A stretch of DNA of 64,000 nucleotides. Origin: an uncultured Planctomycetales bacterium. Its GTDB lineage: Bacteria > Omnitrophota > Gorgyraeia > Zapsychrales > Fredricksoniimonadaceae. Every line of letters starts with the position of its first letter. Positions within the stretch are counted from its first letter, which is position 1. Shown one piece after another: positions 10,491-64,000 of the stretch. The position numbers and the translations under genes were made by a program. The notes below the pieces were generated by a model. It worked only from the letters and a program-made list of their open reading frames with translations, was not told where the DNA came from and made no database searches. The stretch spans positions 163,552-227,551 of the forward strand of contig CAZOXU010000001.1 in the NCBI GenBank assembly GCA_964583975.1. The letters run 5' to 3'.

Positions 10491-10493
10491 AGA

Positions 10494-40634: not shown

Positions 40635-40708
40635 ATCAATTGTTAAAATATAGCATATTCTTGCCTTTATTCGAGACGTAATATATACTTTTATTGTCTT
40701 ATCACGTT

Positions 40709-42705: not shown

Positions 42706-42706
42706 T

Positions 42707-44255: not shown

Positions 44256-44261
44256 AAAACA

Positions 44262-47407: not shown

Positions 47408-47416
47408 TAAAACCCA

Positions 47417-48319: not shown

Positions 48320-49296
48320 ACCTTATTCTCTTCTAGCGCAGCCTGCGCACGTTGAATATTCTCATCGTAAGATGGACATTTTTGACAAGCTTTGTATTTT
48401 TTCTGTGTATGTCCATATTTTCCCAAAAGCCGTATCTTATCCATATGAGACGAGAACCAATATTGTTTCAAAGACCACTTATTTAAATCTCCGAAACCCA
48501 GCTGAGAAATCATATAACAGTTAGTAAAATTACCGCCGGACATAATGAGAATATAAAACCAACCATTCAAACAAGCCTCGGGAGACCTTGCTCCATCACT
48601 CGTTAAATCTCGACTCAAGCTTTCTGGCACGATAATGTCTCGGTTATACTCAGTGACAATCATTTTTCTATAATCCACCCGATTGACACCTAGCTCGTCT
48701 GCCAAATCGTTCATCTGTGGTATTTGATTAAAATTAACTGTGTTCACAATATAAGCGATTTCTATTTTAAAGCCGGGTTTGGCAGCATCGCGCATAGCCA
48801 CAAGACGCTTAATATTGGCTACGACTCGATCGAATAAGTCTTTGCCCTTCATCTGAATATAATGTTCTCGATTAACAGCACTGAGATTAATGATGACATG
48901 ATCGACCTTAAATACCTCGGCACAAAGATCCAAAGGAAACGCTGCATTCGTATGCAATTTAATGTACAAGGGTTGATTCTCCACATGTCGCATCATCTGC
49001 CGAAATGATGGATGTAAGGTTGGCTCACCTGAGCCAACAATAGTCATTTCATCAACTTTCATCTCAACACAATCATCGACAATCCCCTGAAACTTTTCTA
49101 GAGACAAAAAATGGGCCTTATCAAAATGAGCTGGATTTCCAGGCGCATGTTCGGTGACACAAAACTGACAGCGCACATTACAGGCATTGGTGAGCTCGAG
49201 CGTTACATTTTCAGGTCCAATATAAACCTTATTATTACGCACTCCGGAGATGCGTTGGGTGTGTCGATGTTTTAATTCTAGAGGATCAATAATCAT
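48316..49296 (-). CDS. Radical SAM enzyme, tandem paralog C (C-terminal CxxC retained)
   Basis: CNVRCQFC and GSGEPTLHP are present, with C-terminal CLNGWF ... KACQKCPSYDE. Confidence 0.65.
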   Translation of the reverse strand: MIIDPLELKHRHTQRISGVRNNKVYIGPENVTLELTNACNVRCQFCVTEHAPGNPAHFDKAHFLSLEKFQGIVDDCVEMKVDEMTIVGSGEPTLHPSFRQMMRHVENQPLYIKLHTNAAFPLDLCAEVFKVDHVIINLSAVNREHYIQMKGKDLFDRVVANIKRLVAMRDAAKPGFKIEIAYIVNTVNFNQIPQMNDLADELGVNRVDYRKMIVTEYNRDIIVPESLSRDLTSDGARSPEACLNGWFYILIMSGGNFTNCYMISQLGFGDLNKWSLKQYWFSSHMDKIRLLGKYGHTQKKYKACQKCPSYDENIQRAQAALEENKV

Positions 49297-49304
49297 AATA
49301 TTCT

Positions 49305-50246
49305 CTACTGATCAACCAACTGATGATTGAGACGAAACTGTCTTTCAAATGCCCTGATTTGACCATTCTTTCCTAATAGCCGCAATTTCATCATTTGAGT
49401 CGAAAGCCAAAAGTCTTTCAAAGAGTACTTATCAAAACCCCCTAGACTCCCCTCAGGAATTTGATAAAAAGGATCAAAGTTACCCTCTGTTCCAACTAAT
49501 ATATAAAACCAACCATTCAAAGATGATGGAGGAAATATGATTTCTTCATATTCTGCTTCTGTTTTTAAATCTTCAGGTATGGCTACAGACTGGTTATATT
49601 CATGTACTTTCATCTTTTTAAAAAAGACGGAATTAACACCTAATTCTGCGACGAGTTCCTGCATTCTTTGTTTTTGATGAATATTCATCATGTTCATCAC
49701 ATAATCAATCTCAATATGAAACCCTGGCTTCATGGTATTGCGCAAGGCAACCAAACGTTTAATATTGGCAATGACTCGATCGAAAAAGTCTTTTCCTTGT
49801 AATAGCCGATATTGTTCTTGATCAACGGCGCCGAGATTAACCACAACGTGGTCGCCTTTGATGACATCGGAACAATAATCTAAATCAAAAGCTCCGTTGG
49901 TAACTAGAACGACCCTGATGGGTTGTTGTTCTAAATGTCGCATCATCTCTCTAAAGGATGGATGCATGGTTGGTTCCCCTGAACCTATCAGGGTGATCTG
50001 ATCAACCTTTAATTCCACACAATCACGGACTATTTCCACAAATTTCTCCCATGACAAAAAACGGGCCTTATCAAAATGAGCCGGGTTTCCAGGAGAATGA
50101 TCGGTAATACAGTACTGGCATCGAAGATTACAGACATTGGTCAGTTCCAATGTCACAATCTCAGGTCCGATGTACACTTGATGATCGCGTACGCCTGCAA
50201 TCCTTTGCAAGTATCGTTGTTTTAATTCCGCAGCATCAATGATCAT
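49305..50246 (-). CDS. Radical SAM enzyme, tandem paralog D (C-terminal Cys motif absent)
   Basis: CNLRCQYC and GSGEPTMHP are present. The product ends ..GKNGQIRAFERQFRLNHQLVDQ. Confidence 0.6.
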   Translation of the reverse strand: MIIDAAELKQRYLQRIAGVRDHQVYIGPEIVTLELTNVCNLRCQYCITDHSPGNPAHFDKARFLSWEKFVEIVRDCVELKVDQITLIGSGEPTMHPSFREMMRHLEQQPIRVVLVTNGAFDLDYCSDVIKGDHVVVNLGAVDQEQYRLLQGKDFFDRVIANIKRLVALRNTMKPGFHIEIDYVMNMMNIHQKQRMQELVAELGVNSVFFKKMKVHEYNQSVAIPEDLKTEAEYEEIIFPPSSLNGWFYILVGTEGNFDPFYQIPEGSLGGFDKYSLKDFWLSTQMMKLRLLGKNGQIRAFERQFRLNHQLVDQ

Positions 50247-51352
50247 ATTTTTTTCTTAAAAAAAGCACGACAGATTTGAATAGTCTGCTCGGCTTTGTCT
50301 TGGCTCATGAAAGAATGCAATGGCAGATGCAAAGCACAATCCCCATACCATTGACTGACAGGATATCGATCTTTCTTTAATCCTTTAAAAACCTTCATCT
50401 GGTGAAGAGGCAAATATGGCTTTTGGTACATCACCCCTTCTTGCGTTAAAAAATTAGCTAATTTGTCTCTATGCGAAGAACATATCACAAAATTCTGGGC
50501 TACACCCACTGTATCAGGCTGGTCTTTAAAGATTGTCAGGCTCTTAATAGAACCCAATTCCTTTTCATAAAGCGATTTGATCTTATGACGAGAATTGATG
50601 ATTTCTTTTAAGTGAGCAAATTTAACGCGTAAGGCAATCAGATCCAAAAAAGCCATCGGTGCAAATCGCTGCCCGAGCTTCAAAAGTTCTGCATCATCGC
50701 GCCAGTCTTCCATCCAATGACGGATGCGATTTCCTCCATCATGATTAAAAACTACCATCCCACCCCCACCCCCGCATGAAGATAATGGCTTATAGTAAGA
50801 AAATGAAAACACTGAAATATCTCCAAAGCTTCCTAACATGCGCCCCTTATAGCGCGAACTTTCTGCCTGGCATACATCTTCAATAAAGGCGATCTTCTTA
50901 GCTCGAGCCAGTTTGCTGATACGCTCAATATCACACGGACGACCAAACATATGGGCTGCAACGATGGCCTTGGTTTTCTTAGTAATGGCCTTCTCTAACA
51001 AAGCAGGATCTATTTGCAAATCATCCTTACTGGCATCCACAGGCACGGGTGTGGCCCCACAATAAAACACAGCTAAGGCAACTGCCTGGTAGGTCAAATT
51101 TGGCACAATGACTTCATCGCCAGCTCCTACGCCAGCGAGCAGCAAAGCCATTTTAAGCGCATCGCTGCCTGAGTTGACCGCTACAGCTTCTTTCACGCCA
51201 ATGTAACGAGCAAATGTTCGTTCAAATTCGCGAAGTGCAGGCTTAATATCATTAAGCCCTTTCATAGCCTTAAGAGCTGTTTGCATTTCCATAGCATACT
51301 CACGGCTTAAGGCCTGCTCAACTAAGAGACTTTCATATCTTATAGCTGCCAT
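50243..51352 (-). CDS. DegT/DnrJ/EryC1/StrS-family PLP-dependent aminotransferase
   Basis: VNSGSDALKMALLLAGVGAGDEVIVP and SFSYYKPL (lysine motif) are present. The likely start is MAAIRY at 51352. The ORF-track start at 51379 overlaps the upstream gene further. Confidence 0.65.
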   Translation of the reverse strand: MAAIRYESLLVEQALSREYAMEMQTALKAMKGLNDIKPALREFERTFARYIGVKEAVAVNSGSDALKMALLLAGVGAGDEVIVPNLTYQAVALAVFYCGATPVPVDASKDDLQIDPALLEKAITKKTKAIVAAHMFGRPCDIERISKLARAKKIAFIEDVCQAESSRYKGRMLGSFGDISVFSFSYYKPLSSCGGGGGMVVFNHDGGNRIRHWMEDWRDDAELLKLGQRFAPMAFLDLIALRVKFAHLKEIINSRHKIKSLYEKELGSIKSLTIFKDQPDTVGVAQNFVICSSHRDKLANFLTQEGVMYQKPYLPLHQMKVFKGLKKDRYPVSQWYGDCALHLPLHSFMSQDKAEQTIQICRAFFKKKI

Positions 51353-52364
51353 GCAACGCTCCCATGATCTTATGATCAATTTCCTCGATCTGCTTGCACA
51401 GATCGATGTAATTCATGACACGTGGTTCAAAACGACGTCCTGGTGGTGTTTGAACAGCTTGTAGGGCATTAAAATTGCTGATGCTGCGATAAGAGCAGCT
51501 CGGATGGTTGGTGACATATTCATGCAAGGCCTTAAAATATCGCACGCCCTGCGGCAGCAAATCACCGGATGAACTTTGAGAAAAATCCATCAGATACAAA
51601 TGTTCGCGCACCTCTTCTGGAAAAGATAGCAATAACCAATTGGCTAGGATCTTGCCGCTCGGCACAGACAATAAATCCCATGTACCGCGAGCCGCTTCAC
51701 TATATCCGCGACCGATCAACCCTTGCCGTCCCTCTTTTAATTCCCAGGCACAGGCCCTACGATACTGATCTAAGAAAATCTTGGCCGCCTCGCTATCCCA
51801 TACTTCAAGAAAGGCTGGATGCACTTCCAAAGACTTTAATCCCATCGAAGCTAATAATTTTACATTTTCAAAAAGTTTGGCAACACTCGATGGATGCACA
51901 ACCATGGTAGCCGTCATAGGTCCCTTGGCGTTAATAGCTAGGTTCACACCACGCAAAATATCTCTGTAATAGTATTCACCAATACCAGGACGATTGCGTT
52001 GGGTGGTAGCCTCATCGCCATCAATACCCACTTCCAAATTAACGTTATGCTGCACGAAGAAATTCATGAGGCTAGCATCAAGCAAGGTCGCATTGGTTTG
52101 TACGGAAATGTAGCGAGCTAGTTCCTGCTGGCGGATCACACTAATCATCTCTTTGAGCCTGTCTGCATCCATTAACGGCTCACCGCCTGAAAAAACAAAT
52201 TCCGCCGGAACAACTGGGCGGATGTATTTTAAAATATTTTCGAATGTCTTTAACTCAATGACCTGGCTCTGAGATCGGTATTTATAAAAACAATAGCCGC
52301 AGCCGAGATTGCAGCGGTCGGTAAAGAACAACCAGACATGGTTGATATTATTAAGCATGGCCAA
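51333..52364 (-). CDS. Radical SAM enzyme, anSME-like N-terminal core, paralog 1 (no SPASM Cys array)
   Basis: FFTDRCNLGCGYCFY and FSGGEPLM are present. It is a paralog of the 52351..53454 product. Confidence 0.6.
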   Translation of the reverse strand: MAMLNNINHVWLFFTDRCNLGCGYCFYKYRSQSQVIELKTFENILKYIRPVVPAEFVFSGGEPLMDADRLKEMISVIRQQELARYISVQTNATLLDASLMNFFVQHNVNLEVGIDGDEATTQRNRPGIGEYYYRDILRGVNLAINAKGPMTATMVVHPSSVAKLFENVKLLASMGLKSLEVHPAFLEVWDSEAAKIFLDQYRRACAWELKEGRQGLIGRGYSEAARGTWDLLSVPSGKILANWLLLSFPEEVREHLYLMDFSQSSSGDLLPQGVRYFKALHEYVTNHPSCSYRSISNFNALQAVQTPPGRRFEPRVMNYIDLCKQIEEIDHKIMGALHGSYKI

Positions 52365-53454
52365 ATCTCTTTAATTTAAGTTTCAAGTGCGTACGTGTTA
52401 AAAATCGCATAATGTCATTAATGGCCCAGGTATTCATATATTGGCGGCCCATCATTGTGTTCATTAATTCAAAGTTGTGACAAACATGTTCACGATACGG
52501 CAGGCGCTTGTGTTGCTGATGCATTTGTTCATAAGCTTCGGTGTAAATCGCCATGATCTCAGGTCGAAACTCGCCGGTTGTCGCATCCCACAGATTAAAC
52601 TCAATGCGTTTTTCTTCAGGCAGACACAGAAAAGGATCGCCTCCGAATAAATACCCGGGTGGATGCAGGCTTAAATCCATGACTCCGGGCTCAATCCACT
52701 CGACATCTTCATTCACATACATCCCATGGCGAAGCTCAGGACGGCGAGCTAGGCTCAAATAGTTTTGTTTAAAAAGCGCGACCGTTTCAGGGGTCCAAGG
52801 CATGAAAGCTGCTGGCGTGATATCAATATGCGGGATTCCTAGCTTCACTAAGAAATCCAAACCTTTTTCCATATGTTGCACTTCGTGCGGATGCACCGTC
52901 ATGGTTGAGCCGCACGAGATGCCTGCAGCCACACATTTTTGGATGGTATCAGTTAATTTCTTAAACGAAGCTGGTTTTAATCCGCAACGATGCTCGGCCG
53001 TTGTTTCAAAAGCCCCATCAATACCAAACTCAAGGCTGACTTTTAATCGACGTAACTCTTCAATTGAGGCATCATCAATCAATAAACCATTGGTTTGAAT
53101 ATGCAGTGAGGTGTTCTTGAAACGATGGTGGGCTTCATTAAGGATCTTAAAAAGATTCTCTTTGGCTAGAAAGGCTTCCCCACCGCTAAAGATCAGGGTT
53201 GAAGGAGCTGTTTGTTCTCTTTCAAACAATAAAAAAAGCTGTTCGACAGCAGCCATGGAGATTTCCCGACCGTGCATGTGTCTAAAGAAACAATAGTCGC
53301 AATGCAAATTGCAACGCTCGGTCACATAAATCCAGGTGTAATGGACCTTAAATTTCTTATGCGTCTTTTCTTGAATCAATGAAGTAACGGATTTTTCCAT
53401 TAGTGGTCCTTGGAATGCTTCCTTGATGCGTTCTGACATCGATGCAGCGGTCAA
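52351..53454 (-). CDS. Radical SAM enzyme, anSME-like N-terminal core, paralog 2
   Basis: YVTERCNLHCDYCFF and FSGGEAFL are present. The ORF-track N-terminus overlaps the upstream gene, so the true start is probably an internal Met (e.g. MEKSV..). Confidence 0.6.
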   Translation of the reverse strand: MTAASMSERIKEAFQGPLMEKSVTSLIQEKTHKKFKVHYTWIYVTERCNLHCDYCFFRHMHGREISMAAVEQLFLLFEREQTAPSTLIFSGGEAFLAKENLFKILNEAHHRFKNTSLHIQTNGLLIDDASIEELRRLKVSLEFGIDGAFETTAEHRCGLKPASFKKLTDTIQKCVAAGISCGSTMTVHPHEVQHMEKGLDFLVKLGIPHIDITPAAFMPWTPETVALFKQNYLSLARRPELRHGMYVNEDVEWIEPGVMDLSLHPPGYLFGGDPFLCLPEEKRIEFNLWDATTGEFRPEIMAIYTEAYEQMHQQHKRLPYREHVCHNFELMNTMMGRQYMNTWAINDIMRFLTRTHLKLKLKRFGHA

Positions 53455-54523
53455 TGCCGGTGGCCTTCACGATAGCCTGTATTAAGGCTGCAGCTGCTCG
53501 AGGCTTTTTATCGACTAGATTTACTATAAGTTTATCATAATATTTCAACGGATGCTTGTCTAACACGAAGAAGAACCGTGGGTGGCCCAGGGAATCATTG
53601 ACCGCCCGAATCAGCTCTTGTTTCAACACCACAACCCCGTTGATGAGAAGGCTGTCCTCGGTTCTACTTAAAACCTTAATGCCCAATGCTCCTCGGTGGC
53701 GAATCAACTCAACGCGATCTCCCAGGCGATAACGGATAAAAGGCATGCTGGTGTTATTCAAATCGGTCACCAGAAGATCGCCCGAGCCACTCTGGCTAGT
53801 CTCGCCCGAGGCGCTTAGCACCTCTAACAATAAATCATCAGCCACAACTCTCATGTACTGGTCAGCAGGTTTAAGCGCCACTGCTAATCCTGAGATTTCC
53901 ATAGCTCCGTAATGATCGTGGATATGAACGCCTCCCATCTTTTCAATACGCTGGCGGTATTGCGGCCACAGCGGCTCGCCATTGACCAAACAACGCTTAA
54001 TCGAATGGTTTTTTCTCAATAGAGCAAAAATATCAAAAAGCTGATTAGTGTAAGCATTGATCATGGTGGGCTTCAAAGCCTTGATCAAACCAATGGCTTC
54101 TTTAAGTCGTTCAGGAGTACTTGTGGAACCTAAAGGAATAACTCCACAGCCTGCCGCTTTAAAACCAGCTTCCATCAAACGGCCACCGCTATTAAGTTCA
54201 TACGAACACAGATTCAGGCACAGCATACCCTTTTTAACACCCACCAGTCGATAGAGTTTAACCAACCGAGCCAGATGTGCTGCGTAGGCTGGCTCGCTAT
54301 GGGCAATCATCATGCGTGAAGACGATGATCCTGAAGTAGCTGCCAAATTAAAAGCATTACTTATCAGGCCTGACTCGGCAAATCGCTTCATTTCACTTCT
54401 GCCAGTAATTGGCAATTGTTTAAAATCCTCCCAAGAACGTATCTGCTTTCGATAATAACGGTCTTTCTTAGCAAAGACCGATACTAATTGGGCCGCTTGC
54501 TTTAAATTTTTAGCATTAAACAT
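53357..54523 (-). CDS. Adenylate-forming enzyme, PaaK / coenzyme F390 synthetase / CapK-like
   Basis: TSGSSSSRMMIAH resembles the P-loop-like (S/T)SG(S/T)(S/T)G motif of the PaaK-family ANL superfamily. The ~390-aa size fits. This is a tentative call. Confidence 0.4.
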   Translation of the reverse strand: MFNAKNLKQAAQLVSVFAKKDRYYRKQIRSWEDFKQLPITGRSEMKRFAESGLISNAFNLAATSGSSSSRMMIAHSEPAYAAHLARLVKLYRLVGVKKGMLCLNLCSYELNSGGRLMEAGFKAAGCGVIPLGSTSTPERLKEAIGLIKALKPTMINAYTNQLFDIFALLRKNHSIKRCLVNGEPLWPQYRQRIEKMGGVHIHDHYGAMEISGLAVALKPADQYMRVVADDLLLEVLSASGETSQSGSGDLLVTDLNNTSMPFIRYRLGDRVELIRHRGALGIKVLSRTEDSLLINGVVVLKQELIRAVNDSLGHPRFFFVLDKHPLKYYDKLIVNLVDKKPRAAAALIQAIVKATGIDRCIDVRTHQGSIPRTTNGKIRYFIDSRKDA

Positions 54524-54526
54524 AGG

Positions 54527-55960
54527 TTATAAGGTTACCTCGGCTAATAATTCTTTGGAAATTGCAGGTTCATGGCTCTTGTCTGGCTCGCTAGAGTATA
54601 TCATTTTATAAAAATGAATCTTCGAATACCTGCTTAAGTCCATACCATCCCTCTGCATCAGAATGATCAAGGTCTTTAATCGTTCGTTTTTTTGACTTCC
54701 CTCTGGCATGGCCAGAATACCATTGATCATACTGGTAAATCGAAAAGCTTCCATCTGTTGCTTTAAGACCTTAAAACTGATCAACTCTTCCTGATCACCC
54801 TTAACACCGTAGGCTTCGATGGTAGCTACTCTTGCCTCGGTGATTCGATTAGCAAATGTTGGATAACATGCAAAAGGCCAGCCCGCTATTGTTTCTTTAA
54901 ACCCAAAAAAGCAATTAACCATCAACAAGACTGATCCAACGCCTATGATAATTTTCTGGTCTAAAGCAGATTTCTTAGATGGATTATAATTCATTTTCTC
55001 GGGATTGCTTTTGCTTATCCTAGCTAACAAACCATCCCAATTAATAAAGGCAACATAACAAATTAGCAGATTAAAAAAACTGATCTTCATAAACACATAA
55101 ATCATTGTATGAAAAAATAAACCTGCAGTGACAGCTATTGGTCGTAATGTGGGGAAAAATATAAACACCACAAAGAACAACTCAAAGATAATAATTCCTA
55201 AACTAGCCGCCTTATATAACACAGGATATTGGTCTAAACGAAAGAATGGCAGCCACCCATCGAGCTCAAACCATTTGGCATATAGATGATATTTTAAATT
55301 ATCGGACCAAGCCCAATCCGCCGATACAGCCAATTTCCAAAAACCCGGAAAGAAATAAATCATTGCTATCAAAAGCCAGATAAAACGTAACGGCAAGGCA
55401 TATTCAACCGAATTGGGAATTCTGCTCATCATTCTCTTCCGGGCTTGCCATAATGAGTCTATGGACAACACATCGGCACAACGTGAAGCGCTTAAGATCA
55501 ACATAAACCATATCAAATGATGGTTATGATCGACCTTGCCATAACATTGGCTGATGCCCATCACATAAATGCCACTGATAGCAGCGATAAAACAGGTCCA
55601 GCGGGCAAAGCATCCAAACATGGCCAAAATACAAGCAACTGTAAACACAAATAGGCTCTTCTCAACCAATGCAGGATTGATGGGAACAATGGATAACAAG
55701 GTGTTCATCCCTATCGGAACCACTCTCATCTCAGACGGTAATTGGCTAAATCCAATGCTTGTGGCCCATAAGCCCTGTAATTGTGTGAGAATGAAAAGAA
55801 ATAGGATGATACGAAATATGGCAAGGTTAAAAGGCGAGCCTTTCTCTGAGAAGAAATTCTTAACGACTGATTTTATCCGAGGCAGCAGACGCCATGGATC
55901 GCCATTCAATATGTATAAGAATAGGAAGAAAAAGAATACAAAAAATACGGTGAATTTCAT
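54527..55960 (-). CDS. HTTM-domain (vitamin K-dependent gamma-carboxylase-like) polytopic membrane protein
   Basis: N-terminal ..SPFNLAIFRIILFLFILTQL.. matches the HTTM L-x-x-F-R-I motif. The ~477-aa product has many TM helices. Confidence 0.4.
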   Translation of the reverse strand: MKFTVFFVFFFFLFLYILNGDPWRLLPRIKSVVKNFFSEKGSPFNLAIFRIILFLFILTQLQGLWATSIGFSQLPSEMRVVPIGMNTLLSIVPINPALVEKSLFVFTVACILAMFGCFARWTCFIAAISGIYVMGISQCYGKVDHNHHLIWFMLILSASRCADVLSIDSLWQARKRMMSRIPNSVEYALPLRFIWLLIAMIYFFPGFWKLAVSADWAWSDNLKYHLYAKWFELDGWLPFFRLDQYPVLYKAASLGIIIFELFFVVFIFFPTLRPIAVTAGLFFHTMIYVFMKISFFNLLICYVAFINWDGLLARISKSNPEKMNYNPSKKSALDQKIIIGVGSVLLMVNCFFGFKETIAGWPFACYPTFANRITEARVATIEAYGVKGDQEELISFKVLKQQMEAFRFTSMINGILAMPEGSQKNERLKTLIILMQRDGMDLSRYSKIHFYKMIYSSEPDKSHEPAISKELLAEVTL

Positions 55961-56835
55961 TACGCTCCGGCTGCTTTGGCTTTCTTTAAAATAAATTCCA
56001 GGGCTGGCACCTTGACTCGCAATTTGTGCGCCTGTTTGACCAGCGCTCCTGTTATAAAATCAAGTTCTGTCTTTCGATGCGCAAAGGCATCATCAGCAAT
56101 AGATCCCCGATGACGAATACCAGCTAAATCTCCCGTACGTACTCTAGAGATTAATTGCAGCGGATCAAAGGCAAGCCGTATCTTTAAGGCGCGAGCCACA
56201 CTACGGCCTTCTGCTGCTGCCTGGCGTACCAATCGCCAAATTTCTGGGTCCTTCGCTAAAACATCATATCCACCTGATGTGATGACTGGCAGAGGATTCA
56301 TCACTGCACTGAAAATCAATTTAGCCCAAACGATACTTTGTGGATTAGAGACCACTGATGTGTTTAAACCTGCCTCGGTAAAAAGCTGTCGAAACCACAT
56401 CGCAGCCTGAGAATCCTTCCCCTGATGAGGACTAACGAAGAATTCGCCCTGGTAATAAAACAAGGGTTTTCCACCAGGGATACCGATCGCTGATGTTGTC
56501 ACCCCACGGACAAAGGAAGTTGTGGGAAATAGGCGTTCTATGGAAGAGAGATTCAGGATTCCGTTTTGCAGAAAGAGAATTCTTTGAGCAGTGATTGTAT
56601 TTTTTAAAGGTATTAATGACGACTCAAGATCGTAACATTTGGTGGAAACAATCAAACCATCAAAGGATTTCCCCTTTAAGGCTTTAGCATTCGTAACGAT
56701 ATGACGTCGATTTTTAACACGGGCTGAAGGATCTAAACCTACAACGTTGGTAAATTGCTCGAGACGTTCAATTAAAATTCCACCTAAAGCCCCACAACCG
56801 ACAACAAGGATACGTCGCTTTGCCACCTTGCTCAC
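55960..56835 (-). CDS. NAD(P)-binding oxidoreductase, 2-dehydropantoate 2-reductase (ApbA/PanE/KPR)-like
   Basis: RILVVGCGALGGILIERL is a GxGxxG Rossmann motif. The ~290-aa size and C-terminal helical domain are consistent with the KPR family. Confidence 0.45.
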   Translation of the reverse strand: MSKVAKRRILVVGCGALGGILIERLEQFTNVVGLDPSARVKNRRHIVTNAKALKGKSFDGLIVSTKCYDLESSLIPLKNTITAQRILFLQNGILNLSSIERLFPTTSFVRGVTTSAIGIPGGKPLFYYQGEFFVSPHQGKDSQAAMWFRQLFTEAGLNTSVVSNPQSIVWAKLIFSAVMNPLPVITSGGYDVLAKDPEIWRLVRQAAAEGRSVARALKIRLAFDPLQLISRVRTGDLAGIRHRGSIADDAFAHRKTELDFITGALVKQAHKLRVKVPALEFILKKAKAAGA

Positions 56836-58016
56836 ACAAGCTCCTTCTCATTGTAAAAAATAATGCCTTCATCCTCAAAAAATGATTTTGGAGTATACCA
56901 GCCTTCCTTCAAACCTTTGCGATAAAAGGCTGTGCCAGGCAATATCACTAAGCGATTGGTTGTCACCGCAACCTCTGACCCTAATTCTTCTAAAACTGAT
57001 AAGGTCATTTTCTTATCAAGATCTGTTTCACCAGGATTTCCCACTGTAATTAACACTTCCACCCTTAAACCCGCTTCTTGAGACCAGCGCACCGCATCGA
57101 GGATTTCCTGACGGCTATAAACCTTACCAATTCTCCGTAAAACTTCGGGCGAAGCTGACTCGACTCCAAAATAAATCTCCCGGCAATGAGAACGTCCCAT
57201 CAGTAAAAGTGTTTTCTGGCTTACTGAGTTAATACAGGCGGAACAACTCCAATAAAACTCACCCTTAATTTTTCGTAAACCTTCGCATAAGGCGGCCAGA
57301 CGCTTATGATCAGCGGCAATGTCTTCATCAAGGAACTGGATGTTTTTGACCTTATGGACTTCCACAAGCTCACGGATTTCTTGCAAAACATTTTCAACGC
57401 TTCGATTACGAACCTTACCTCCCCACAGTACATTGCGATCACAATACACACAATGATACTGGCATCCGCGGGCAGTCATAATAAAGGCTGGCTGAAATCC
57501 CTGCTTATGAAAATAAGGGCTGATAAAAGGAATTTGATCTAAATCATGGTTGGAATGTTTTGGCGTATGAATGACCTTGCCATCTTCGAGAAAAGATATG
57601 TTTGGAATCTTCTTCCAAGAGGCAGTCTCTTGAGGCGCTTGCAATATGGCTGGGATCACAAATTCTGGATCATGCGATACAACAATATCAGCCAATCCCC
57701 GAGTCAGCATTTCTTCAGGAAATGAAGAGGCGAAAGATCCGAAAGCAATAATCAACTGTGGGGATTTCTTAGCAGCGCGGGCCTTTTCTATGTGACGAAA
57801 GGCATTGATCTTATTGCCAAAGAAAACCGCATAACAACAAATATCAGCCTGCCCTTCCTTAGGGGTTTGGCCTTTCATATCTGACATGAAATCAATATAT
57901 CTAGCCTCAAACCCTTTATTCTGTAGGGCTAGAAATACTCCCCCAGCCGTATAACTAACCAATAAAGGCCCACAGCACGGCGGGCGGCTATTAGCTTCTA
58001 TAATCACGTCAATCAA
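56832..58016 (-). CDS. Radical SAM enzyme with an N-terminal B12-binding-like domain (class B, cobalamin-dependent type)
   Basis: RGCQYHCVYCD (CxxxCxxC) sits in the middle of the protein. The N-terminal ~150 aa are Rossmann-like with a CCGP segment. Confidence 0.5.
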   Translation of the reverse strand: MIDVIIEANSRPPCCGPLLVSYTAGGVFLALQNKGFEARYIDFMSDMKGQTPKEGQADICCYAVFFGNKINAFRHIEKARAAKKSPQLIIAFGSFASSFPEEMLTRGLADIVVSHDPEFVIPAILQAPQETASWKKIPNISFLEDGKVIHTPKHSNHDLDQIPFISPYFHKQGFQPAFIMTARGCQYHCVYCDRNVLWGGKVRNRSVENVLQEIRELVEVHKVKNIQFLDEDIAADHKRLAALCEGLRKIKGEFYWSCSACINSVSQKTLLLMGRSHCREIYFGVESASPEVLRRIGKVYSRQEILDAVRWSQEAGLRVEVLITVGNPGETDLDKKMTLSVLEELGSEVAVTTNRLVILPGTAFYRKGLKEGWYTPKSFFEDEGIIFYNEKELV

Positions 58017-58888
58017 GATGCGCTCCTTTGGCTTCTTCTCGCATTGAAATTAAAATAAAATTGCATCTTCTGCTTGGGATTCCACTGCATACTTAAGTAC
58101 TCTAATTTTAAATCATGAAAAATTTGATAAAAATCAGCTATAAACCGTGCCACGTTTTGTCGCGGATCAAATATCTTTAACAAAGTGACAAACTTCCTGG
58201 TCTGATAACGCATGTCTGCTCTTAAAGAACGACCCTTCGGTGAATATTTCACACAAATAAGGAATTTCTCTGAAAGAAGTCCTTTTTGACGTAATAGATC
58301 ATATTTTAACATTTCCCCTCGAGCGAACTCTCCAGAGAATTTCTCAAACAATTCTTCTAAATTAAATAGGCCAAAATAAACCTTAATCGTGGCCTGACCC
58401 TCATGGTCCCAATCGATCCCTGAAAACTCTATTCGTTTAAACAGGCTTTGATCTTTTTTGAATGCAGCCTGTGGGATATTTAGAAGCGTGAATGATTTCG
58501 CAATATGCTCGACCTTTTGGGCTTGCAACTGCTGACGTCCATAAAAGTTATAAATCTTGATGCGACCAACGCCTTTACCCGATGGATAATCCGCTAAGCC
58601 AATCCCAAAACATTTTTCTGTTGTATTTGTATAAAGCAAATCCTCAATCAGTGGTATTTTTCGGCGGCACGCAGCGAACCATTTTAAAACATCTTGCCTG
58701 CCAAGCCCTTCAATCGATAATCTCATACGATCTAATCTAAGACCATCGACCACTTCACAGGAAATTTCAAATTTCTCATCGGGTATTTCAAGTTTTTCGT
58801 AGGCCCGCAAGTATTGGGCAAATTCTCCAGAACTGTCGCAACTCAATGCGTCAAAGAACTTTGTTCTGAAATCTTTAGGAATTTTCAC
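58013..58888 (-). CDS. Hypothetical protein (cluster-specific, unknown fold)
   Basis: The 291-aa product has no motif assigned. It sits between two radical SAM genes with 4-nt and 15-nt spacing. Confidence 0.3.
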   Translation of the reverse strand: MKIPKDFRTKFFDALSCDSSGEFAQYLRAYEKLEIPDEKFEISCEVVDGLRLDRMRLSIEGLGRQDVLKWFAACRRKIPLIEDLLYTNTTEKCFGIGLADYPSGKGVGRIKIYNFYGRQQLQAQKVEHIAKSFTLLNIPQAAFKKDQSLFKRIEFSGIDWDHEGQATIKVYFGLFNLEELFEKFSGEFARGEMLKYDLLRQKGLLSEKFLICVKYSPKGRSLRADMRYQTRKFVTLLKIFDPRQNVARFIADFYQIFHDLKLEYLSMQWNPKQKMQFYFNFNARRSQRSAS

Positions 58889-58903: not shown

Positions 58904-59800
58904 TTAGACAGCAGTGCTGGCCTGTCGTGATATCCAACTATTGGAAGACATCGTATCTCTATACATTTTAGGCAGCCCTATGCAGTCAGTCCCTTTACAA
59001 CAGGCATAACTTTGATACTCACAAGCCTCAAATCTTTGATCAACAAACTTATCAATGATGCCAAAAGTAATGGGCTGTCTATTATCATGGTATTTCTTAT
59101 AAGGTTCATCTAAAAGACAGGCGGGGAAAAATTTAACACAGATCCTCCTATTGTGACTCAGAAGATATTTGATTGTCTTATTAAGATAGGGTCCGGTTAA
59201 TTCATAAGGCAATAATAATTCGGGTGCCTGCACAGTCATAGGCACGTATCCCCAAAAATGCATTCCCAGGATATTATCAAACCCTTGAAGAAATTCTCCA
59301 ATTTCTGGCAATACCTTGTAATTTTGCGAACTCATGACCGTATTAGTAAATACCGTCAGATCTAGTTCCCTAAGATTTTCCAAAGCTTTGACTGTTTGAG
59401 CATGAGCTCCAACTCGACCAGTGATCTTGTCAGAAAGATCATAATCAGCGCTATGGAAAGAAACAAAATAATGATTAATGCCGGCATTTTTAAGTTGTTG
59501 GGCTTTTTCGATTTTAGATAAGGCCCTGGCATTGGTTTGAATCATAATATTCTTAAATCCCTTGTCCCGGGCTACAGCAGCATATTCGGGCAATTCCTCA
59601 TTGATCGTCACTTCCCCGCCAGAAAAAACAACACCCGAATATTTACCCTTAGGGATCAGGTCTAAGGATTTCTTAAAAAGAGGCAACGACACTTTGCGCA
59701 AATCTACGAGCTGTTCTTCGCTGCCTTCAATAAAACAGATCCCGCATTTGCTATTACATTTGTGTTCAATGACAAACACTAGATATTCATCTAAGTTCAT
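58904..59800 (-). CDS. Radical SAM enzyme with a C-terminal Cys-rich (twitch/SPASM-like) segment
   Basis: HKCNSKCGICF and FSGGEVTI are present. The C-terminal segment is CEYQSYACCKGTDCIG. Confidence 0.6.
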   Translation of the reverse strand: MNLDEYLVFVIEHKCNSKCGICFIEGSEEQLVDLRKVSLPLFKKSLDLIPKGKYSGVVFSGGEVTINEELPEYAAVARDKGFKNIMIQTNARALSKIEKAQQLKNAGINHYFVSFHSADYDLSDKITGRVGAHAQTVKALENLRELDLTVFTNTVMSSQNYKVLPEIGEFLQGFDNILGMHFWGYVPMTVQAPELLLPYELTGPYLNKTIKYLLSHNRRICVKFFPACLLDEPYKKYHDNRQPITFGIIDKFVDQRFEACEYQSYACCKGTDCIGLPKMYRDTMSSNSWISRQASTAV

Positions 59801-59818: not shown

Positions 59819-60679
59819 TTAAAAAACATTGTAGTAACTGCTTTTACTAAATACTGGGCCTTGTGGTCCTAAGGCGCAATCAAAAGCCACATCATATAAC
59901 AAATGGTTAAATTTAACTTTATTCGACTTCATAAAATCCAAAATATGTGAAGGATAAGCGAAAAATTCTAAGAAATATAACAGTTGATCGACGTTCACTC
60001 TTGAGAAGTAAATCCCGTCCGTATTCTTCTTATGGGCTACGCATATTTTGTGGCATGACATTAATTTTCTAATCAAAACATGCTTTAACAGAGCGACCCT
60101 ATCTTTGGCAAAGAAAACACCCTGCTTAATTTTATAAATAAACGGCTTTGCCTCTTGTGGCATCAAATAAAAATCGTAATAGTTTTCAAACACAATGCCA
60201 TCTTGCCCCCAACAGTAACTCGTTCCCTGGGATATTCCAGATCTTCCTTCCATATACAGATGGACATTTTTAATTTGTCGGGATTTTAAAATAGCATCAG
60301 ACAAATCAATTGAGAACATCAAATAAGGCTGATTTTCAATGCTAATGTCAGCAAATTCGGGAATTTTAAAGTGTGATCGAAGGGTTTTAAGGACATGTTC
60401 GACTTTTTTGCGTGGATCTTTGCGGCCATTATTATAAAAGTAGAGCTCCCAGGTGAGGTGTCGGTTATCCCATTTAACTCCCCAAACGGTATTCCATGGA
60501 CCCAAAGAGTCTTGTAGCCTTTTGCTGACGTTTAAGAAATCTTTTTGGTAAGTGCTATGCAGTAAAGAGTTCTGAAAAATTAGATCTGAGGAAAGTTTAC
60601 CCTTAACAGGCTTAATCGGCACATAGGGGTTATGACAATAATCATAATATTCCCAATTTTTCTTCATAACAGGATCCAT
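59819..60679 (-). CDS. Hypothetical protein (cluster-specific)
   Basis: The 286-aa product has no motif assigned. It is divergent from the prepilin peptidase gene. Confidence 0.3.
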   Translation of the reverse strand: MDPVMKKNWEYYDYCHNPYVPIKPVKGKLSSDLIFQNSLLHSTYQKDFLNVSKRLQDSLGPWNTVWGVKWDNRHLTWELYFYNNGRKDPRKKVEHVLKTLRSHFKIPEFADISIENQPYLMFSIDLSDAILKSRQIKNVHLYMEGRSGISQGTSYCWGQDGIVFENYYDFYLMPQEAKPFIYKIKQGVFFAKDRVALLKHVLIRKLMSCHKICVAHKKNTDGIYFSRVNVDQLLYFLEFFAYPSHILDFMKSNKVKFNHLLYDVAFDCALGPQGPVFSKSSYYNVF

Positions 60680-60775
60680 TCTACAAGTAAATCCCCACTT
60701 AAGAACACCCTTCTAATATTAAATATTATAACATATAATACGGCTGTTTATTAATGCTTCGAGGAGGAACATCGC

Positions 60776-61648
60776 TTGGAATCAACCATTGTCTTTTCTT
60801 CTATTATCCTCATTGTCGGTTTATTGACCATACTTTCCGATTTAAAAAATAAGAAAATTTATAATAGTCATCTTATGATTGGATTCGTTCTAGGCCTCGC
60901 AGGGATCGTTTATACCTCAATTTGGACCCAGGAACCGGTGGTCTTTCATATCATTAACGGTATTATCGCCTTTATAACTGGGACCTTTCTCCATCGGATC
61001 AGTATATGGAAAGGCGGAGATGCTAAATTATTTGCACTCTACGCTTTTCTCATGCCTGCCATCGAACCTAATCCCTTGCCTTCGAGCGTCATCAATCTGT
61101 TCGCCTGCTCTTTTATTGCCGGGACGATGGTCATCCTGCCTTTCTTAATAAAAGATACCTTTTTAAATTATAAAGCTATATTAAGAAAAATCACTTCTCC
61201 TGATCAACGCAAGCCACTGCTCACAGCTATTGGTATAACCTGCTTCTACTCCTGGATTTTCTTTCCTCTTTATTATTTCGCAGGGTTTATCCGCATTCCT
61301 GCGCTATCAATGCTCATTACCTATTTTATTTTTTACATTGTCCGCCGCTATATAAAAAAGGCCCCCATAACACGTCAGACCCAAAACATATTGATCGGCT
61401 GTGGTATTGCTCTGGGATTCTTAATGCGTTTTTGGTTAAGTCCTTCTTCTTTATCCTGGCCAATCCTAGGCTATTCTATTCTTAAAATAGTTGTCTTTTC
61501 CACTCTAGCGGCTGGCATTTACATAGTCATTGATTTTTTTAGTAAACAATATCACGATCGTGTTGCTTTTGCGCCTTTGTTGTTTATAGGCTGTGTTCTG
61601 AGTTATACTCCCTTTATAACCTGGATCATGCATCTTAGACATTTATGA
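60776..61648 (+). CDS. A24-family prepilin peptidase (TadV/CpaA-like Flp-type leader peptidase) with an extended C-terminal membrane domain
   Basis: The two catalytic-Asp motifs of A24 peptidases are present: LSDLKNKKIYN (D-x-x-x-[RK]-x-I-P/Y-N) and WKGGDAKLFA (GGD[AV]KL). The start is a TTG with a GGAGG RBS 8 nt upstream. The product is 290 aa versus ~150 aa for a typical TadV. Its stop overlaps the start of the next radical SAM gene (ATGA). Confidence 0.55.
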   Translation: MESTIVFSSIILIVGLLTILSDLKNKKIYNSHLMIGFVLGLAGIVYTSIWTQEPVVFHIINGIIAFITGTFLHRISIWKGGDAKLFALYAFLMPAIEPNPLPSSVINLFACSFIAGTMVILPFLIKDTFLNYKAILRKITSPDQRKPLLTAIGITCFYSWIFFPLYYFAGFIRIPALSMLITYFIFYIVRRYIKKAPITRQTQNILIGCGIALGFLMRFWLSPSSLSWPILGYSILKIVVFSTLAAGIYIVIDFFSKQYHDRVAFAPLLFIGCVLSYTPFITWIMHLRHL

Positions 61649-62643
61649 GACCATCTTCTCCTTTAGAAATCATCATTGAAATTACCGGCAAATGTCGTCT
61701 GGTTTGCCCCTACTGCACGGGCCCACGAAGCGCTGATGTTCCCTTAAAAGATATTAAATCGACCCTGGATGAAGCAGCCAGCCTAGGTGTTAAGGCTATT
61801 CGTATTACGGGCGGCGAGCCGCTCCTGCATCCTGAGATTAAAACCATCCTGACCTACGCTAAGTCTAAGAAATTTTCGGTCTTACTCAACACAGCGGCTG
61901 AAGATATCTCCCCCGCTTTAATGAAGACTCTTATTGCTACCGTTGATGTGGCCTTAATTTCTCTGCAAGGATATGATGAAAAATCTAACGCCGCCTATAC
62001 GCGCTCGCGTCTGGCTTATTTGGATAAAATCAAAAATATCTTTCTCTTAAAATCGTATCTGCCAACCTTGTGGTTGGCCACTGTCATTACTCCAACCATG
62101 GCCGACTCTTTCGACCGATTCGTGCCGCTTATTAAAAAGATCAATCCAGTGGCTTGGACACTTCTGCGACCGATTAGCGATGCCAATGAAGACCTTCAAC
62201 ACATGGATCTAGCTTTCTATCGCGGACTCACACTTAAAATCATGCGAGCCAGAAAAGACATCAATGTTTTTATAGCCAACCCCATCCCGCTTTGTATTAC
62301 AGGAAATTTGACCATCGGCAAGGAAGCATTTTTCGGAGCAAACTTTGATGACGGTCATGTACGCATTGTGCGTAGCGCCCAAGGCTACTACAAACCCAGT
62401 TATTTTATTGAGAAGAATTTAGGTGATACGATCAAGGCTGCTTGGGCGCATCCTTTTTTAAATGATATTGACCGAACAGATTATTTACCTGATTTATGCC
62501 AACGCTGTCCGGTGCTTGATACCTGTCGTGGCGGCTGTCGAGCCATGGCCCTGCGGGCTTATGGGAACGCTCTTGATAAAGACCCTCTTTTTGATCCTCT
62601 TAAAGCAAAGAAAGCTCTGTTAAGTGCTTCTCTAAAATCTTAG
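61645..62643 (+). CDS. Radical SAM / SPASM-domain enzyme, translationally coupled to the prepilin peptidase gene
   Basis: GKCRLVCPYCTG and ITGGEPLLHP are present. The C-terminal CQRCPVLDTCRGGCRA is a SPASM-type CxxC..CxxxC segment. Confidence 0.65.
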   Translation: MRPSSPLEIIIEITGKCRLVCPYCTGPRSADVPLKDIKSTLDEAASLGVKAIRITGGEPLLHPEIKTILTYAKSKKFSVLLNTAAEDISPALMKTLIATVDVALISLQGYDEKSNAAYTRSRLAYLDKIKNIFLLKSYLPTLWLATVITPTMADSFDRFVPLIKKINPVAWTLLRPISDANEDLQHMDLAFYRGLTLKIMRARKDINVFIANPIPLCITGNLTIGKEAFFGANFDDGHVRIVRSAQGYYKPSYFIEKNLGDTIKAAWAHPFLNDIDRTDYLPDLCQRCPVLDTCRGGCRAMALRAYGNALDKDPLFDPLKAKKALLSASLKS

Positions 62644-63826
62644 CCCCGCTAAACCATTCTTTAGGAATGTTACGAATTTTTGCTCGAGAAGTGCAAACTT
62701 TCTTGATGGAGCGAGCTAAACTTTCTGCGGTTAATTCTTGGTAAGGTACAATTTGTGCACCTAGTACATCTTTGAGCATTCTGGCTCGGGCTGGTTGTTC
62801 AGAATGAGATTTTGCTCCATAGCCTTCAAAAGGAACGATCACAGCCCTTTTGTGATGTTTAAGCAGCATGACTGAGGAATGGTATGAGGCAAGCGATACA
62901 CACGCATCGCTACTTTTAATTAATCCCTCATAATCGCCCAAGGATCGGCGTAATACTAAATTCTTGACCTTCTTTTTAGCCATCAGGGTCGAAAATAGAT
63001 ACCATTCCTGAGTGGTGGTTGATGGTCCTGTCACAACTGTAAAATAATAGTCTGGACCCAATAGCTCACTGGCCCGGATAGCCTCAGCAATGACCTTCGG
63101 ATAAACAGCCCCGCCTCCTCTTACAACAGCGATGCGATAAGCACCCTTGGCGACGGACGGCCGCGGTGAATTGACATCGGTATCATCTTTGACCACTTCT
63201 TGCTCAGGCAAAAGATAGCCTGCAAAGATGATCTTTTGTTCGTGTTCTTTGAAAAAATCTAAATAGCGTTGTCTCTCTTTAAGTGAAGATAAAGAATCGA
63301 CAATCCGATCTTTTTCCATCTCAGGTGAAAAAATAATTATTTTCTGAAACAGTTTTAAAATATTTTGACGCCATTCTTTTGTGCCTGTTAATAGTGGATA
63401 CCCTGCAACCGACCAGACAGCAGCTCCACCTTTGGAAGCCTCCACCAAAGAAGGAATCAATTCATACCGCGATTCTTCACGACCCAGTGGAAAAAATTCT
63501 GTGACAAAAAGATCGGGTTTCTGACGGGTAATAATATCTCGGCATAGTACAGAACGTGCCTCGGTATCGATGGCATTGGGTTGGATTGGTTCTCGAAAGC
63601 TATTTCGATCCACAAAAGCTTTAGGTAAGGAATAGATCTTGCCCCATTGCTCTAATTGAGACTTAGGCTGGGTAACTCCTGCTTGAATAAAAAAGAGGTT
63701 CCCTGATGGAAATCTCTTTTTAAAAACCTCACTGATGGCTGCCACACGAGAAGTATGGCCAAAACATTCGTAGTGAGAGAAATATATACCTATTTTTGGA
63801 TCAGCCTTAGTGACTAAGCCTCTCAT
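62600..63826 (-). CDS. GT-B fold glycosyltransferase (GT1/GT28-like), paralog of 44262..45461
   Basis: N-terminal IGIYFSHYECFGHTSRVAAI parallels LFHYTHKQTLGHTTRSVAL of the 44262..45461 product. The VVRGGGAVYPKV block is shared. Confidence 0.4.
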   Translation of the reverse strand: MRGLVTKADPKIGIYFSHYECFGHTSRVAAISEVFKKRFPSGNLFFIQAGVTQPKSQLEQWGKIYSLPKAFVDRNSFREPIQPNAIDTEARSVLCRDIITRQKPDLFVTEFFPLGREESRYELIPSLVEASKGGAAVWSVAGYPLLTGTKEWRQNILKLFQKIIIFSPEMEKDRIVDSLSSLKERQRYLDFFKEHEQKIIFAGYLLPEQEVVKDDTDVNSPRPSVAKGAYRIAVVRGGGAVYPKVIAEAIRASELLGPDYYFTVVTGPSTTTQEWYLFSTLMAKKKVKNLVLRRSLGDYEGLIKSSDACVSLASYHSSVMLLKHHKRAVIVPFEGYGAKSHSEQPARARMLKDVLGAQIVPYQELTAESLARSIKKVCTSRAKIRNIPKEWFSGAKILEKHLTELSLL

Positions 63827-64000
63827 TTAATATAATCTGGTTTAGGGATTGGAGAAGCTGCTCCCTTGGCATTACAGGCATCGCGCATTTCGTTATTAGC
63901 GATGTCTGAACATTTCTTTGATCCTTGAACGACATCATACCAAATATCAAAATCGCCTTCTTCCTGAGCAACGCTTCTTTTGTGCGCTAAAATACGACAC
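63823..64000 (-). CDS. Partial ORF of unknown function; its N-terminus lies beyond the window end
   Basis: Manual translation of the C-terminus gives ...CRILAHKRSVAQEEGDFDIWYDVVQGSKKCSDIANNEMRDACNAKGAASPIPKPDYIK*. The stop overlaps the ATG of the downstream glycosyltransferase (ATGA). Confidence 0.3.
   Translation of the reverse strand, partial: CRILAHKRSVAQEEGDFDIWYDVVQGSKKCSDIANNEMRDACNAKGAASPIPKPDYIK

Follow-up and report, generated by a model that had tools for sequence, protein, structure and literature searches.

The window, that is, the whole stretch of 64,000 nucleotides (nt) analyzed here (contig CAZOXU010000001.1, Omnitrophota), carries close to its right end the gene of a putative membrane peptidase of the A24 family, hereafter called the peptidase. 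On the same strand it is followed by the gene of a radical S-adenosylmethionine (radical-SAM) enzyme of 332 amino acids (aa), hereafter rSAM332, and on its other side lies a large cluster of further radical-SAM genes. We describe below the peptidase, the Hxs-type radical-SAM cluster with which it is associated, and the small precursor protein that it may process. Coordinates of the features are collected in Table 1.

Only the TTG start codon at position 60776 retains the conserved N-terminus of the peptidase, which aligns with that of its homologues. An earlier note, made from the letters of this stretch, had read this start and its GGAGG ribosome-binding site correctly; the spacing between them is 8 nt. 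At the other end of the gene, the stop codon TGA (61646–61648) overlaps the ATG of rSAM332 (61645–61647) in the sequence ATGA, again in agreement with the note.

Family Assignment and Fold of the Peptidase

The earlier note had pointed to both catalytic Asp motifs of the A24 family and had proposed a search with the hidden Markov model Peptidase_A24 (PF01478 of Pfam) and a careful alignment around the second Asp. The peptidase matches this model above its gathering score by a narrow margin (28.6 versus 26.5 bits, E = 2.1e-06); the match spans residues 11–119 of the peptidase and positions 3–102 of the 104 in the profile. The same model is precomputed on most of the 115 homologues (clusters at 90% identity) found in the database search. 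The two motifs are SDLKNKKIYN (residues 21–30) and GGDAKLF (residues 80–86), and their Asp residues are present throughout: D22 and D82 in 29/29 aligned homologues, the corresponding D24 and D86 in 14/14 sequences of a sister family described below. Both Asp residues and the GDAKLF sequence are invariant across the two families (43 sequences in total, 29 homologues of the peptidase and 14 from the sister family), and the second motif of the peptidase can be written as W-[RKS]-[GPA]-G-D-A-K-L-F. The 29-sequence alignment also has N30, H32, W78, G81, K84-L85-F86, R262, F265, and P267 as invariant positions. On these sequence grounds, the peptidase is a true A24-family homologue, and it very probably retains catalysis.

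The AlphaFold model of the peptidase (confidence score pLDDT 89.6) contains about 10 long helices and has the membrane fold of GxGD proteases expected of an A24 enzyme. According to hydropathy and the positive-inside rule, loops rich in K and R alternate with predicted helices, and because of this alternation D22 and D82 are predicted to lie at cytoplasmic loop/helix ends. The equivalence of these residues to the known catalytic Asp residues is based on the Pfam match and on inspection of the motifs against GspO. An hhalign comparison of the peptidase family with the single GspO sequence of E. coli gave no alignment, a profile search of the PDB by sequence gave no match, and Foldseek against the PDB returned only non-significant matches to ABC transporters. 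NCBIfam and PADLOC hold no model for the peptidase.

A Pfam scan of the peptidase found no domain besides A24. The N-terminal Cys-rich methyltransferase domain of the PilD/GspO type (A24A) is lacking: the A24 core begins at residue 11, and in E. coli GspO the first Asp stands at about residue 94. Near the C-terminus, the peptidase carries the motif R-V-(P/A)-F-A-P-L-L-F-x-G-C, whose PFAP resembles, judged by eye only, the AFGP of E. coli GspO (I-A-F-G-P-W-L-A-L-G).

The Additional Membrane Helices

Extra C-terminal transmembrane helices had been proposed in the earlier note and are borne out, since the model has about 10 helices and the Pfam core covers only residues 11–119; approximately four helices lie C-terminal to the core. 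The note went on to treat them as an extra membrane domain fused to a peptidase, and this part did not hold. A search with residues 121–290 by themselves, run against 1.84 billion representative proteins, gave no more than 52 matches at E ≤ 0.001, nearly all in proteins about 280–300 aa long and at the same position; therefore, the extension belongs to this family in particular and is no known domain that has been fused on. A fused foreign domain was rejected for the further reason that nearly all members have the same architecture, which is shared by the sister family through residue ~232. The 115 homologues are likewise nearly all 280–300 aa long, and where the source names the organism, it is Candidatus Omnitrophota in all cases except one distant match labelled Clostridia.

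One could suppose that a protein with such helices is no longer a protease and serves as a membrane scaffold or exporter, handling either the modified peptide or a glycolipid-like compound made by the DegT, GT28, and AMP-binding enzymes of the cluster. Sugar- and lipid-type enzymes are indeed present there, and the first Gly of GxGD is not conserved. However, the invariance of both Asp residues and of GDAKLF in 43 sequences is hard to explain without catalysis, and we regard a role of this kind as very improbable.

Conservation of the Peptidase Locus in Omnitrophota

About 30 distinct loci (numbered here with the prefix L) were obtained from four look-ups and from a scan of species-representative genomes; they belong to Omnitrophota metagenome-assembled genomes (MAGs), some of which are labelled Planctomycetales or archaeon. 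In all but a handful of these loci, the peptidase gene lies inside the same large radical-SAM cluster, the shared content of which comprises at least 10 radical-SAM genes together with DegT aminotransferase, AMP-binding, ApbA-like, Asn-synthase-like, DUF2334, GT28-like, and HxsD genes. The gene set found by Pfam and NCBIfam scans at 41728..58016 of the window also surrounds peptidase homologues in other MAGs. The earlier note had linked the peptidase to radical-SAM peptide maturation through one ATGA overlap; the link is far stronger than that, the context being kept in all but a handful of about 30 loci and in the three sister-family loci examined.

Two copies of the peptidase gene are present in three MAGs. 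In two of these, radical-SAM genes stand near both copies; in the third, the surroundings of the second copy gave no more than two weak B12-radical-SAM matches. The second copy in L004 lies behind a transposase, with second copies of the precursor gene and of the gene for a 261-aa secreted protein alongside. L036 diverges the most from the other loci: there, precursor-hxsB-hxsD and the peptidase gene converge directly, with few further genes of the cluster in their vicinity. The literature, which we covered in part, yielded no account of this Omnitrophota cluster or of a peptidase in Hxs systems; the link of the peptidase to Hxs may be noted elsewhere.

The cluster can also be followed to the other side: past the first HxsD-HxsB module, L002 (16227–20891) has three more radical-SAM genes and a second HxsD, and therefore the supercluster reaches well past what the window shows.

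The Sister Family in Paceibacterota-Type Genomes

The sister family, which is the nearest outgroup and is found in Paceibacterota-type genomes, is homologous to the peptidase over residues 3–232, well past the Pfam core (profile–profile alignment by hhalign, probability 99.7%, E = 7.7e-26). In 3/3 of the loci examined, its gene lies inside an Hxs radical-SAM operon, and no pilus genes were called in these three loci. The operon of P0115 (locus L076), the most distant homologue and the one labelled Clostridia, begins with HxsD (62.6 bits versus a cut-off of 50), HxsD-like (62 versus 41), HxsB (442 versus 370), and SPASM radical-SAM genes and continues with a 215-aa HxsA3-like His-x-Ser protein, a TPR protein, three HxsC4-like radical-SAM enzymes, a 62-aa open reading frame (ORF), and A24. 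P0176 and P0178 have the same operon, with radical-SAM genes abutting or overlapping the peptidase gene on either side. The radical-SAM genes adjoining the sister-family peptidase are related not to rSAM332 but to the HxsC-like gene 58904..59800, their closest relative in the window.

The Clostridia label of the L076 MAG may be wrong; the same operon is present on a Paceibacterota contig. The named relatives of P0115 belong to Paceibacterota, Colwellbacteria, and archaeal A24B/Aenigmatarchaeota, and the archaeal A24 C-terminal domain PF06819 is found in proteins related more distantly to the sister family. A tblastn search of plasmids with the sister-family peptidase and an HxsA3 leader gave nothing useful. 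Small secreted or anchored proteins (~140 aa) without a family match flank the peptidase-bearing Hxs operons (L076 145–585 and 9606–10022, L036 13302–13727), and the two in L076 are paralogous to each other.

These data bear on the possibility that the enzyme is a general prepilin peptidase, equivalent to TadV or PilD, which serves Flp, type IV pilins, pseudopilins, and the Flp-leader protein of the window (see below), so that its position among radical-SAM genes would be mere synteny. Membership in A24 agrees with this, as do a textbook Flp-type leader in the window, KKIG/QSIIEY, the failure of scans of the 64-kb window to turn up a second A24 gene, and the presence of Tad and type IV pilus machinery in Omnitrophota (preprint 10.64898/2026.06.07.730766); yet the sister family, in a different phylum-level lineage, occurs in Hxs operons in 3/3 loci with no pilus genes called. 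One L004 copy adjoins T2SSE/T2SSF/MshEN genes, but this pilus-adjacent copy, behind its transposase, keeps its own precursor and 261-aa genes. Duplication in three MAGs, with radical-SAM genes beside both copies in two, also argues against general pilin processing, as does the small size of the family (115 clusters at 90% identity; 31 species-level loci in a pattern scan of species-representative genomes, a scan that was not exhaustive). Overall, we consider a general prepilin peptidase unlikely.

The HxsA3-Like Precursor

In relatives of the window, the GT28-like gene is followed by the gene of a secreted, Cys-containing protein of ~261 aa, an ORF of 80–133 aa, HxsB, and HxsD (~20 loci). The last 178 bases of the window (63823..64000) translate as CRILAHKRSVAQEEGDFDIWYDVVQG...EMRDACNAKG, which corresponds to the C-terminus of the 261-aa protein of L002; therefore, the window stops about 1 kb short of the expected precursor, i.e., the small ORF.

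The precursor family comprises 16 sequences of 80–133 aa from 15 loci. They share a Lys-rich N-terminus, a near-invariant DEDG/FVSKE, a hydrophobic helix of ~20 residues, and His-x-Asn/Ser repeats, with the consensus MKKKxKxK...KSLGELMKDEDGFVSKETILKVGLSTVAALGxxGAL...HTN...C..HTNVTTHTSY, with no variation at D-E-D-G, V, and K. These precursors have a long leader and a Lys within the hydrophobic helix. All 16 Omnitrophota precursors match the NCBIfam model NF038309 (HxsA3), below its cut-off (best E = 1.4e-13). Tandem pairs of precursor genes occur in some loci (L066, L064).

In 17 loci, an HxsB-like gene lies no more than 10 kb from the peptidase, and the HxsB proteins of L002 and L076 exceed the 370-bit cut-off of TIGR03978 (375 and 442 bits, respectively); HxsD (PF27806/TIGR03976) is present in L002, L004, L007, and L076-78. 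Sampling in the reverse direction, from the precursor, showed that 7/8 metagenome contigs with enough flanking sequence carry the peptidase. The exception, L066, has no peptidase within 10 kb, and its two precursors (10001–10578) have the degenerate leaders DEGGFVSRG and DEEGHVSRE.

An invariant E-x-G with a hydrophobic helix after it is common to the precursor leaders of both lineages. Judged by the order of its segments, the layout of the precursor is that of a class III signal peptide, despite the acidic residues before the Gly, and this protein is a better substrate candidate for the peptidase than the Cys-rich protein with the Flp leader.

The Coupled Radical-SAM Gene and the Flp-Leader Protein

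The earlier note had called rSAM332 a SPASM radical-SAM enzyme. The radical-SAM core is confirmed, and its CX3CX2C residues C17, C21, and C24 are invariant among orthologues; the SPASM assignment did not hold in full. Pfam SPASM (PF13186) gave no match at E ≤ 0.1, and the NCBIfam matches (PqqE, AhbD, NirJ2) are all far below their cut-offs. Four C-terminal Cys residues, C217, C285, C288, and C294, are kept in 17/18 orthologues, and the last (fifth) Cys, that of the CX2CX5CX3C motif, is kept in 7/18. By this Cys pattern, rSAM332 is SPASM/twitch-like, not a full 7-Cys SPASM enzyme, and likely has one auxiliary cluster.

Of ~28 distinct loci, ~11 have an rSAM332 orthologue directly 3′ of the peptidase gene on the same strand, the two genes overlapping or being at most 41 nt apart. 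A gene of 267 aa on the opposite strand comes between them in the closest relative (67% identity; locus read from gene calls). The ATGA coupling is therefore real but clade-specific. As a conserved partner across lineages, rSAM332 was rejected, no orthologue being present beside the peptidase in Paceibacterota-type operons.

The note had also placed promoters for both halves of the cluster in the 96-bp region 60680–60775. One sigma-70-like match is present there on the minus strand (60754..60725, TTAATA-18-TATAAT, 10/12); the region has no such match on the plus strand, and its three promoter-like sites are not in excess of the 5.9 ± 2.3 found in shuffled sequences.

As the substrate of the peptidase, the note had named the Flp-leader Cys-rich protein ~20 kb upstream, encoded by the only clear ORF of the window with a G-xxxx-E-hydrophobic N-terminus. 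From its leader, this protein could be cleaved by any A24 peptidase. Only four homologues were found, all next to a small secretin and the AmiC-MurI-Que block; the pairing with the secretin is seen in L040, L041, and L042. In the window, L040, and L030, the Flp-leader gene has a radical-SAM cluster after it; in L030, the Flp-leader and peptidase genes are 8 kb apart. In L042, permease and pilin-like genes follow instead, with no radical-SAM cluster, and no match to the protein was found among 16 genes tested from Paceibacterota-type operons. The link of the Flp-leader protein to radical-SAM enzymes is weak, and its proposed role as the substrate was not borne out.

The secretin is unusually short (~260 aa); its gene is divergent to the Flp-leader gene and next to the AmiC-MurI-QueD/C/E genes. 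The homologues of the Flp-leader protein are 339–579 aa long, with variable Cys-rich C-terminal parts.

A joint action of the peptidase and the co-translated rSAM332 on the Flp-leader protein (40694..41728) would agree with the ATGA overlap and the position of the Flp-leader gene at the border of the supercluster in the window, L040, and L030, and thioether-forming radical-SAM enzymes could conceivably act on a Cys-rich protein. But rSAM332 is adjacent in only ~11/28 loci, the pair is split in the closest relative, and the Paceibacterota-type operons have neither an rSAM332 orthologue nor, among the 16 genes tested, a match to the Flp-leader protein, which has only four homologues, always paired with the small secretin and accompanied in L042 by permease and pilin-like genes. 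Such joint action appears distinctly improbable, below even general pilin processing.

Proposed Role of the Peptidase

Taken together, our results favour, with a probability of about 0.58, an Hxs-dedicated subfamily of A24 peptidases that is integral to an expanded radical-SAM system of the HxsA3 type and likely trims its small precursor, not ordinary pilins. In the model that we propose, the small precursor would be made with its Lys-rich N-terminus, an acidic stretch up to the invariant Gly, a hydrophobic helix of ~20 residues, and a tail rich in His-x-Asn/Ser that ends in HTSY. The tail would be modified by cytoplasmic radical-SAM enzymes, namely HxsB with HxsD, the HxsC-like enzyme, their many paralogues, and possibly rSAM332, and the hydrophobic helix would insert into the membrane. 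Like a prepilin peptidase acting on a class III signal, the peptidase would then cut after the invariant Gly (DEDG/FVSKE), at the cytoplasmic face of the membrane; the leader would be lost while the His-rich tail undergoes radical-SAM modification or once this is complete. The mature modified peptide would be released on the outer side. The ATGA overlap would provide co-translation of the peptidase and one maturase in this clade, as a local arrangement and not as the defining link. The same peptidase may also process the Flp-leader Cys-rich protein.

Several observations weigh against this interpretation. Neither peptidase family keeps the first Gly of the canonical GxGD. The residues before the invariant Gly of the precursor are acidic (DED/EEE), not basic as is usual in prepilin and archaeal class III signals, and the Paceibacterota-type leaders have not retained the Glu at +5. 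In roughly half of the Omnitrophota loci (e.g., L005, L024, L030), no precursor was found within 10 kb of the peptidase. The hxsB, hxsD, and precursor genes lie outside the window, and their presence beyond position 64000 is expected from synteny. Finally, instead of a cleavage signal, the conserved motif of the leader could be what HxsB or HxsD recognizes.

The proposed role can be extended: the HxsA3-type peptides would form a class of radical-SAM-modified peptides that uses a prepilin-like (class III) leader, not a Sec signal or a conventional leader of RiPPs (peptides that are made on the ribosome and then modified), and that is released at the membrane by a dedicated A24 peptidase after cytoplasmic modification. 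We put this extension forward tentatively and think it rather doubtful as yet. If it is true, HxsA3-type peptides are in effect modified mini-pilins or membrane-anchored surface peptides, and an undescribed route joins radical-SAM peptide maturation to processing of the type IV pilin style. A protease type would then be named for the unexplained N-terminal processing in HXS antiphage systems, and the conserved Omnitrophota supercluster, with its more than 20 genes, could make a major molecule of the envelope or of host interaction.

Other Genes of the Window

The gene of the GT28-like glycosyltransferase converges with rSAM332, and their 3′ ends overlap by 44 nt (62600–62643). On the opposite side of the intergenic region, the paralogous genes 58013..58888 and 59819..60679 flank the HxsC-like gene and are conserved beside the peptidase gene in several loci; neither has a match in Pfam, NCBIfam, or PADLOC. 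The HxsC-like protein between them is related to HxsC (TIGR03977) and HxsC4 (NF038332) and scores below the thresholds of both. PADLOC found in the window only a generic viperin-like radical-SAM similarity.

Farther to the left, four radical-SAM paralogues stand in tandem on the minus strand (46406–50246). Those at 46406 and 48316 end in CxxC (KACLTCPFYE and KACQKCPSYD), those at 47417 and 49305 have no terminal CxxC, and the two types alternate along the array. The 477-aa membrane protein with an HTTM domain (54527–55960, minus strand), of the vitamin-K-carboxylase-like fold family, is also present in the cluster of the closest relative.

Table 1. Features of the 64-kb window discussed in the text, from right to left.
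Feature	Coordinates	Strand	Remarks
Secreted Cys-containing protein of ~261 aa, C-terminal end only (truncated by the window end)	63823..64000	−	Matches the C-terminus of the L002 261-aa protein
GT28-C-like (MurG-type) glycosyltransferase	62600..63826	−	Pfam Glyco_tran_28_C, 24.7 bits; orthologue follows rSAM332 in most loci
Radical-SAM enzyme, 332 aa (rSAM332), with C-terminal auxiliary-cluster Cys motif	61645..62643	+	Pfam Radical_SAM, E = 2.4e-14
A24-family (GxGD-type) putative intramembrane aspartyl peptidase, Hxs-cluster-associated	60776..61648	+	290 aa, ~10 transmembrane helices
Shine-Dalgarno sequence GGAGG	60763..60767	+	8 nt 5′ of the TTG start, read from sequence
AT-rich divergent intergenic region, 96 bp	60680..60775		Between the 286-aa gene (−) and the peptidase gene (+)
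286-aa protein, family unassigned	59819..60679	−	Paralogue of 58013..58888; orthologues in L002, L009
HxsC/HxsC4-like radical-SAM enzyme, 298 aa	58904..59800	−	Best NCBIfam: HxsC4, 80.6 bits versus 500; HxsC, 54.7 versus 267.9
291-aa protein, family unassigned	58013..58888	−	Paralogue of 59819..60679
Rest of the conserved cluster, first part	41728..58016		APH-type kinase, Asn-synthase-like, DUF2334, GT28-like, radical-SAM, four tandem radical-SAM paralogues
Rest of the conserved cluster, second part	41728..58016		DegT aminotransferase, two radical-SAM, AMP-binding, HTTM, ApbA-like reductase, B12-radical-SAM
Flp/class-III-leader Cys-rich protein	40694..41728	+	KKIG/QSIIEY, then hydrophobic helix; alternative ATG 40709
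Small secretin, 265 aa	39050..39847	−	Pfam Secretin, E = 2.6e-16; conserved partner of the Flp-leader protein

Comparison with Known Systems

A24 peptidases are the processing enzymes of pilins, pseudopilins, and archaellins. TadV proteins typically have 140–170 aa, so that the present peptidase, at 290 aa, is about twice as long as TadV/CpaA, as the earlier note had remarked. It shares with TadV/CpaA the A24 core, the two Asp residues, and the lack of a methyltransferase domain; automated annotation of the Joint Genome Institute calls many of the homologues CpaA, and a protein with an Flp-type leader is encoded in the window. However, TadV/CpaA enzymes are short cores encoded in tad/cpa loci, whereas the peptidase matches no NCBIfam model and has radical-SAM, glycosyltransferase, and unknown genes as its neighbours; no tad ATPase or platform gene was found in the scanned parts of the window.

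The archaeal A24B peptidases of the FlaK/PibD type (FlaK structure 3S0X) are similar in having no N-terminal methyltransferase domain, and their C-terminal domain, PF06819, is carried by distant relatives of the sister family. The present subfamily differs from them by approximately four additional transmembrane helices, by W-[RKS]-[GPA]-GDAKLF at the second Asp and IYN in place of IPN/IPD after the first, and by its context, which is a radical-SAM peptide system and not a flagellum or pilus locus.

The HXS antiphage system of Pseudomonadota, the single Hxs system for which experiments have been described, consists of four genes, HxsD-HxsB-HxsC-HxsA, and its effector HxsA needs radical-SAM-dependent N-terminal processing, not canonical signal-peptide removal, before it reaches the periplasm; the protease was not identified (Li et al., Nat Commun 2026, PMC13128918). 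The loci related to the window likewise hold HxsB above its cut-off, HxsD, an HxsC-like radical-SAM enzyme, and a precursor with His-x-Ser/Asn repeats. In contrast to the antiphage system, in which canonical HxsA has a Sec-type signal and neither a dedicated peptidase nor an A24 gene is present, the systems considered here combine an HxsA3-like precursor, whose leader is class-III-like, with an A24 peptidase of their own, and the Omnitrophota system is expanded to more than 20 genes with more than 10 radical-SAM enzymes and sugar-type enzymes. The small HxsA2 of an Acidiphilium plasmid also has an ordinary Sec-type signal. Because the studied system has no A24 gene and this HxsA2 has a Sec-type signal, the HxsA3-type systems seem to have replaced the HxsA processing step with a prepilin-style leader and a dedicated peptidase. 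The conservation of the Omnitrophota supercluster and its sugar-type enzymes suggest a more elaborate product.

Among the curated NCBIfam models, NF038309 (HxsA3) matches the N-terminal part of the 16 Omnitrophota precursors and of the L076 protein, NF038315 (HxsD-like) is exceeded in L076, and NF038332 (HxsC4) is the best match of the radical-SAM genes next to the peptidase. The distances are nevertheless considerable: the HxsA3-like protein of L076 reaches at most 31.9 versus 65 bits, the HxsC4-like enzymes 80–155 versus 500 bits, and the NCBIfam Hxs models include none curated for an associated peptidase. The peptidase would be a testable candidate for leader removal in Hxs systems of the HxsA3 type, and the Omnitrophota stand out by a large radical-SAM supercluster that is conserved and uncharacterised. 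With a conserved subfamily tied into radical-SAM maturation in two distant lineages that are mostly uncultured, the substrate range known for GxGD proteases would become wider.

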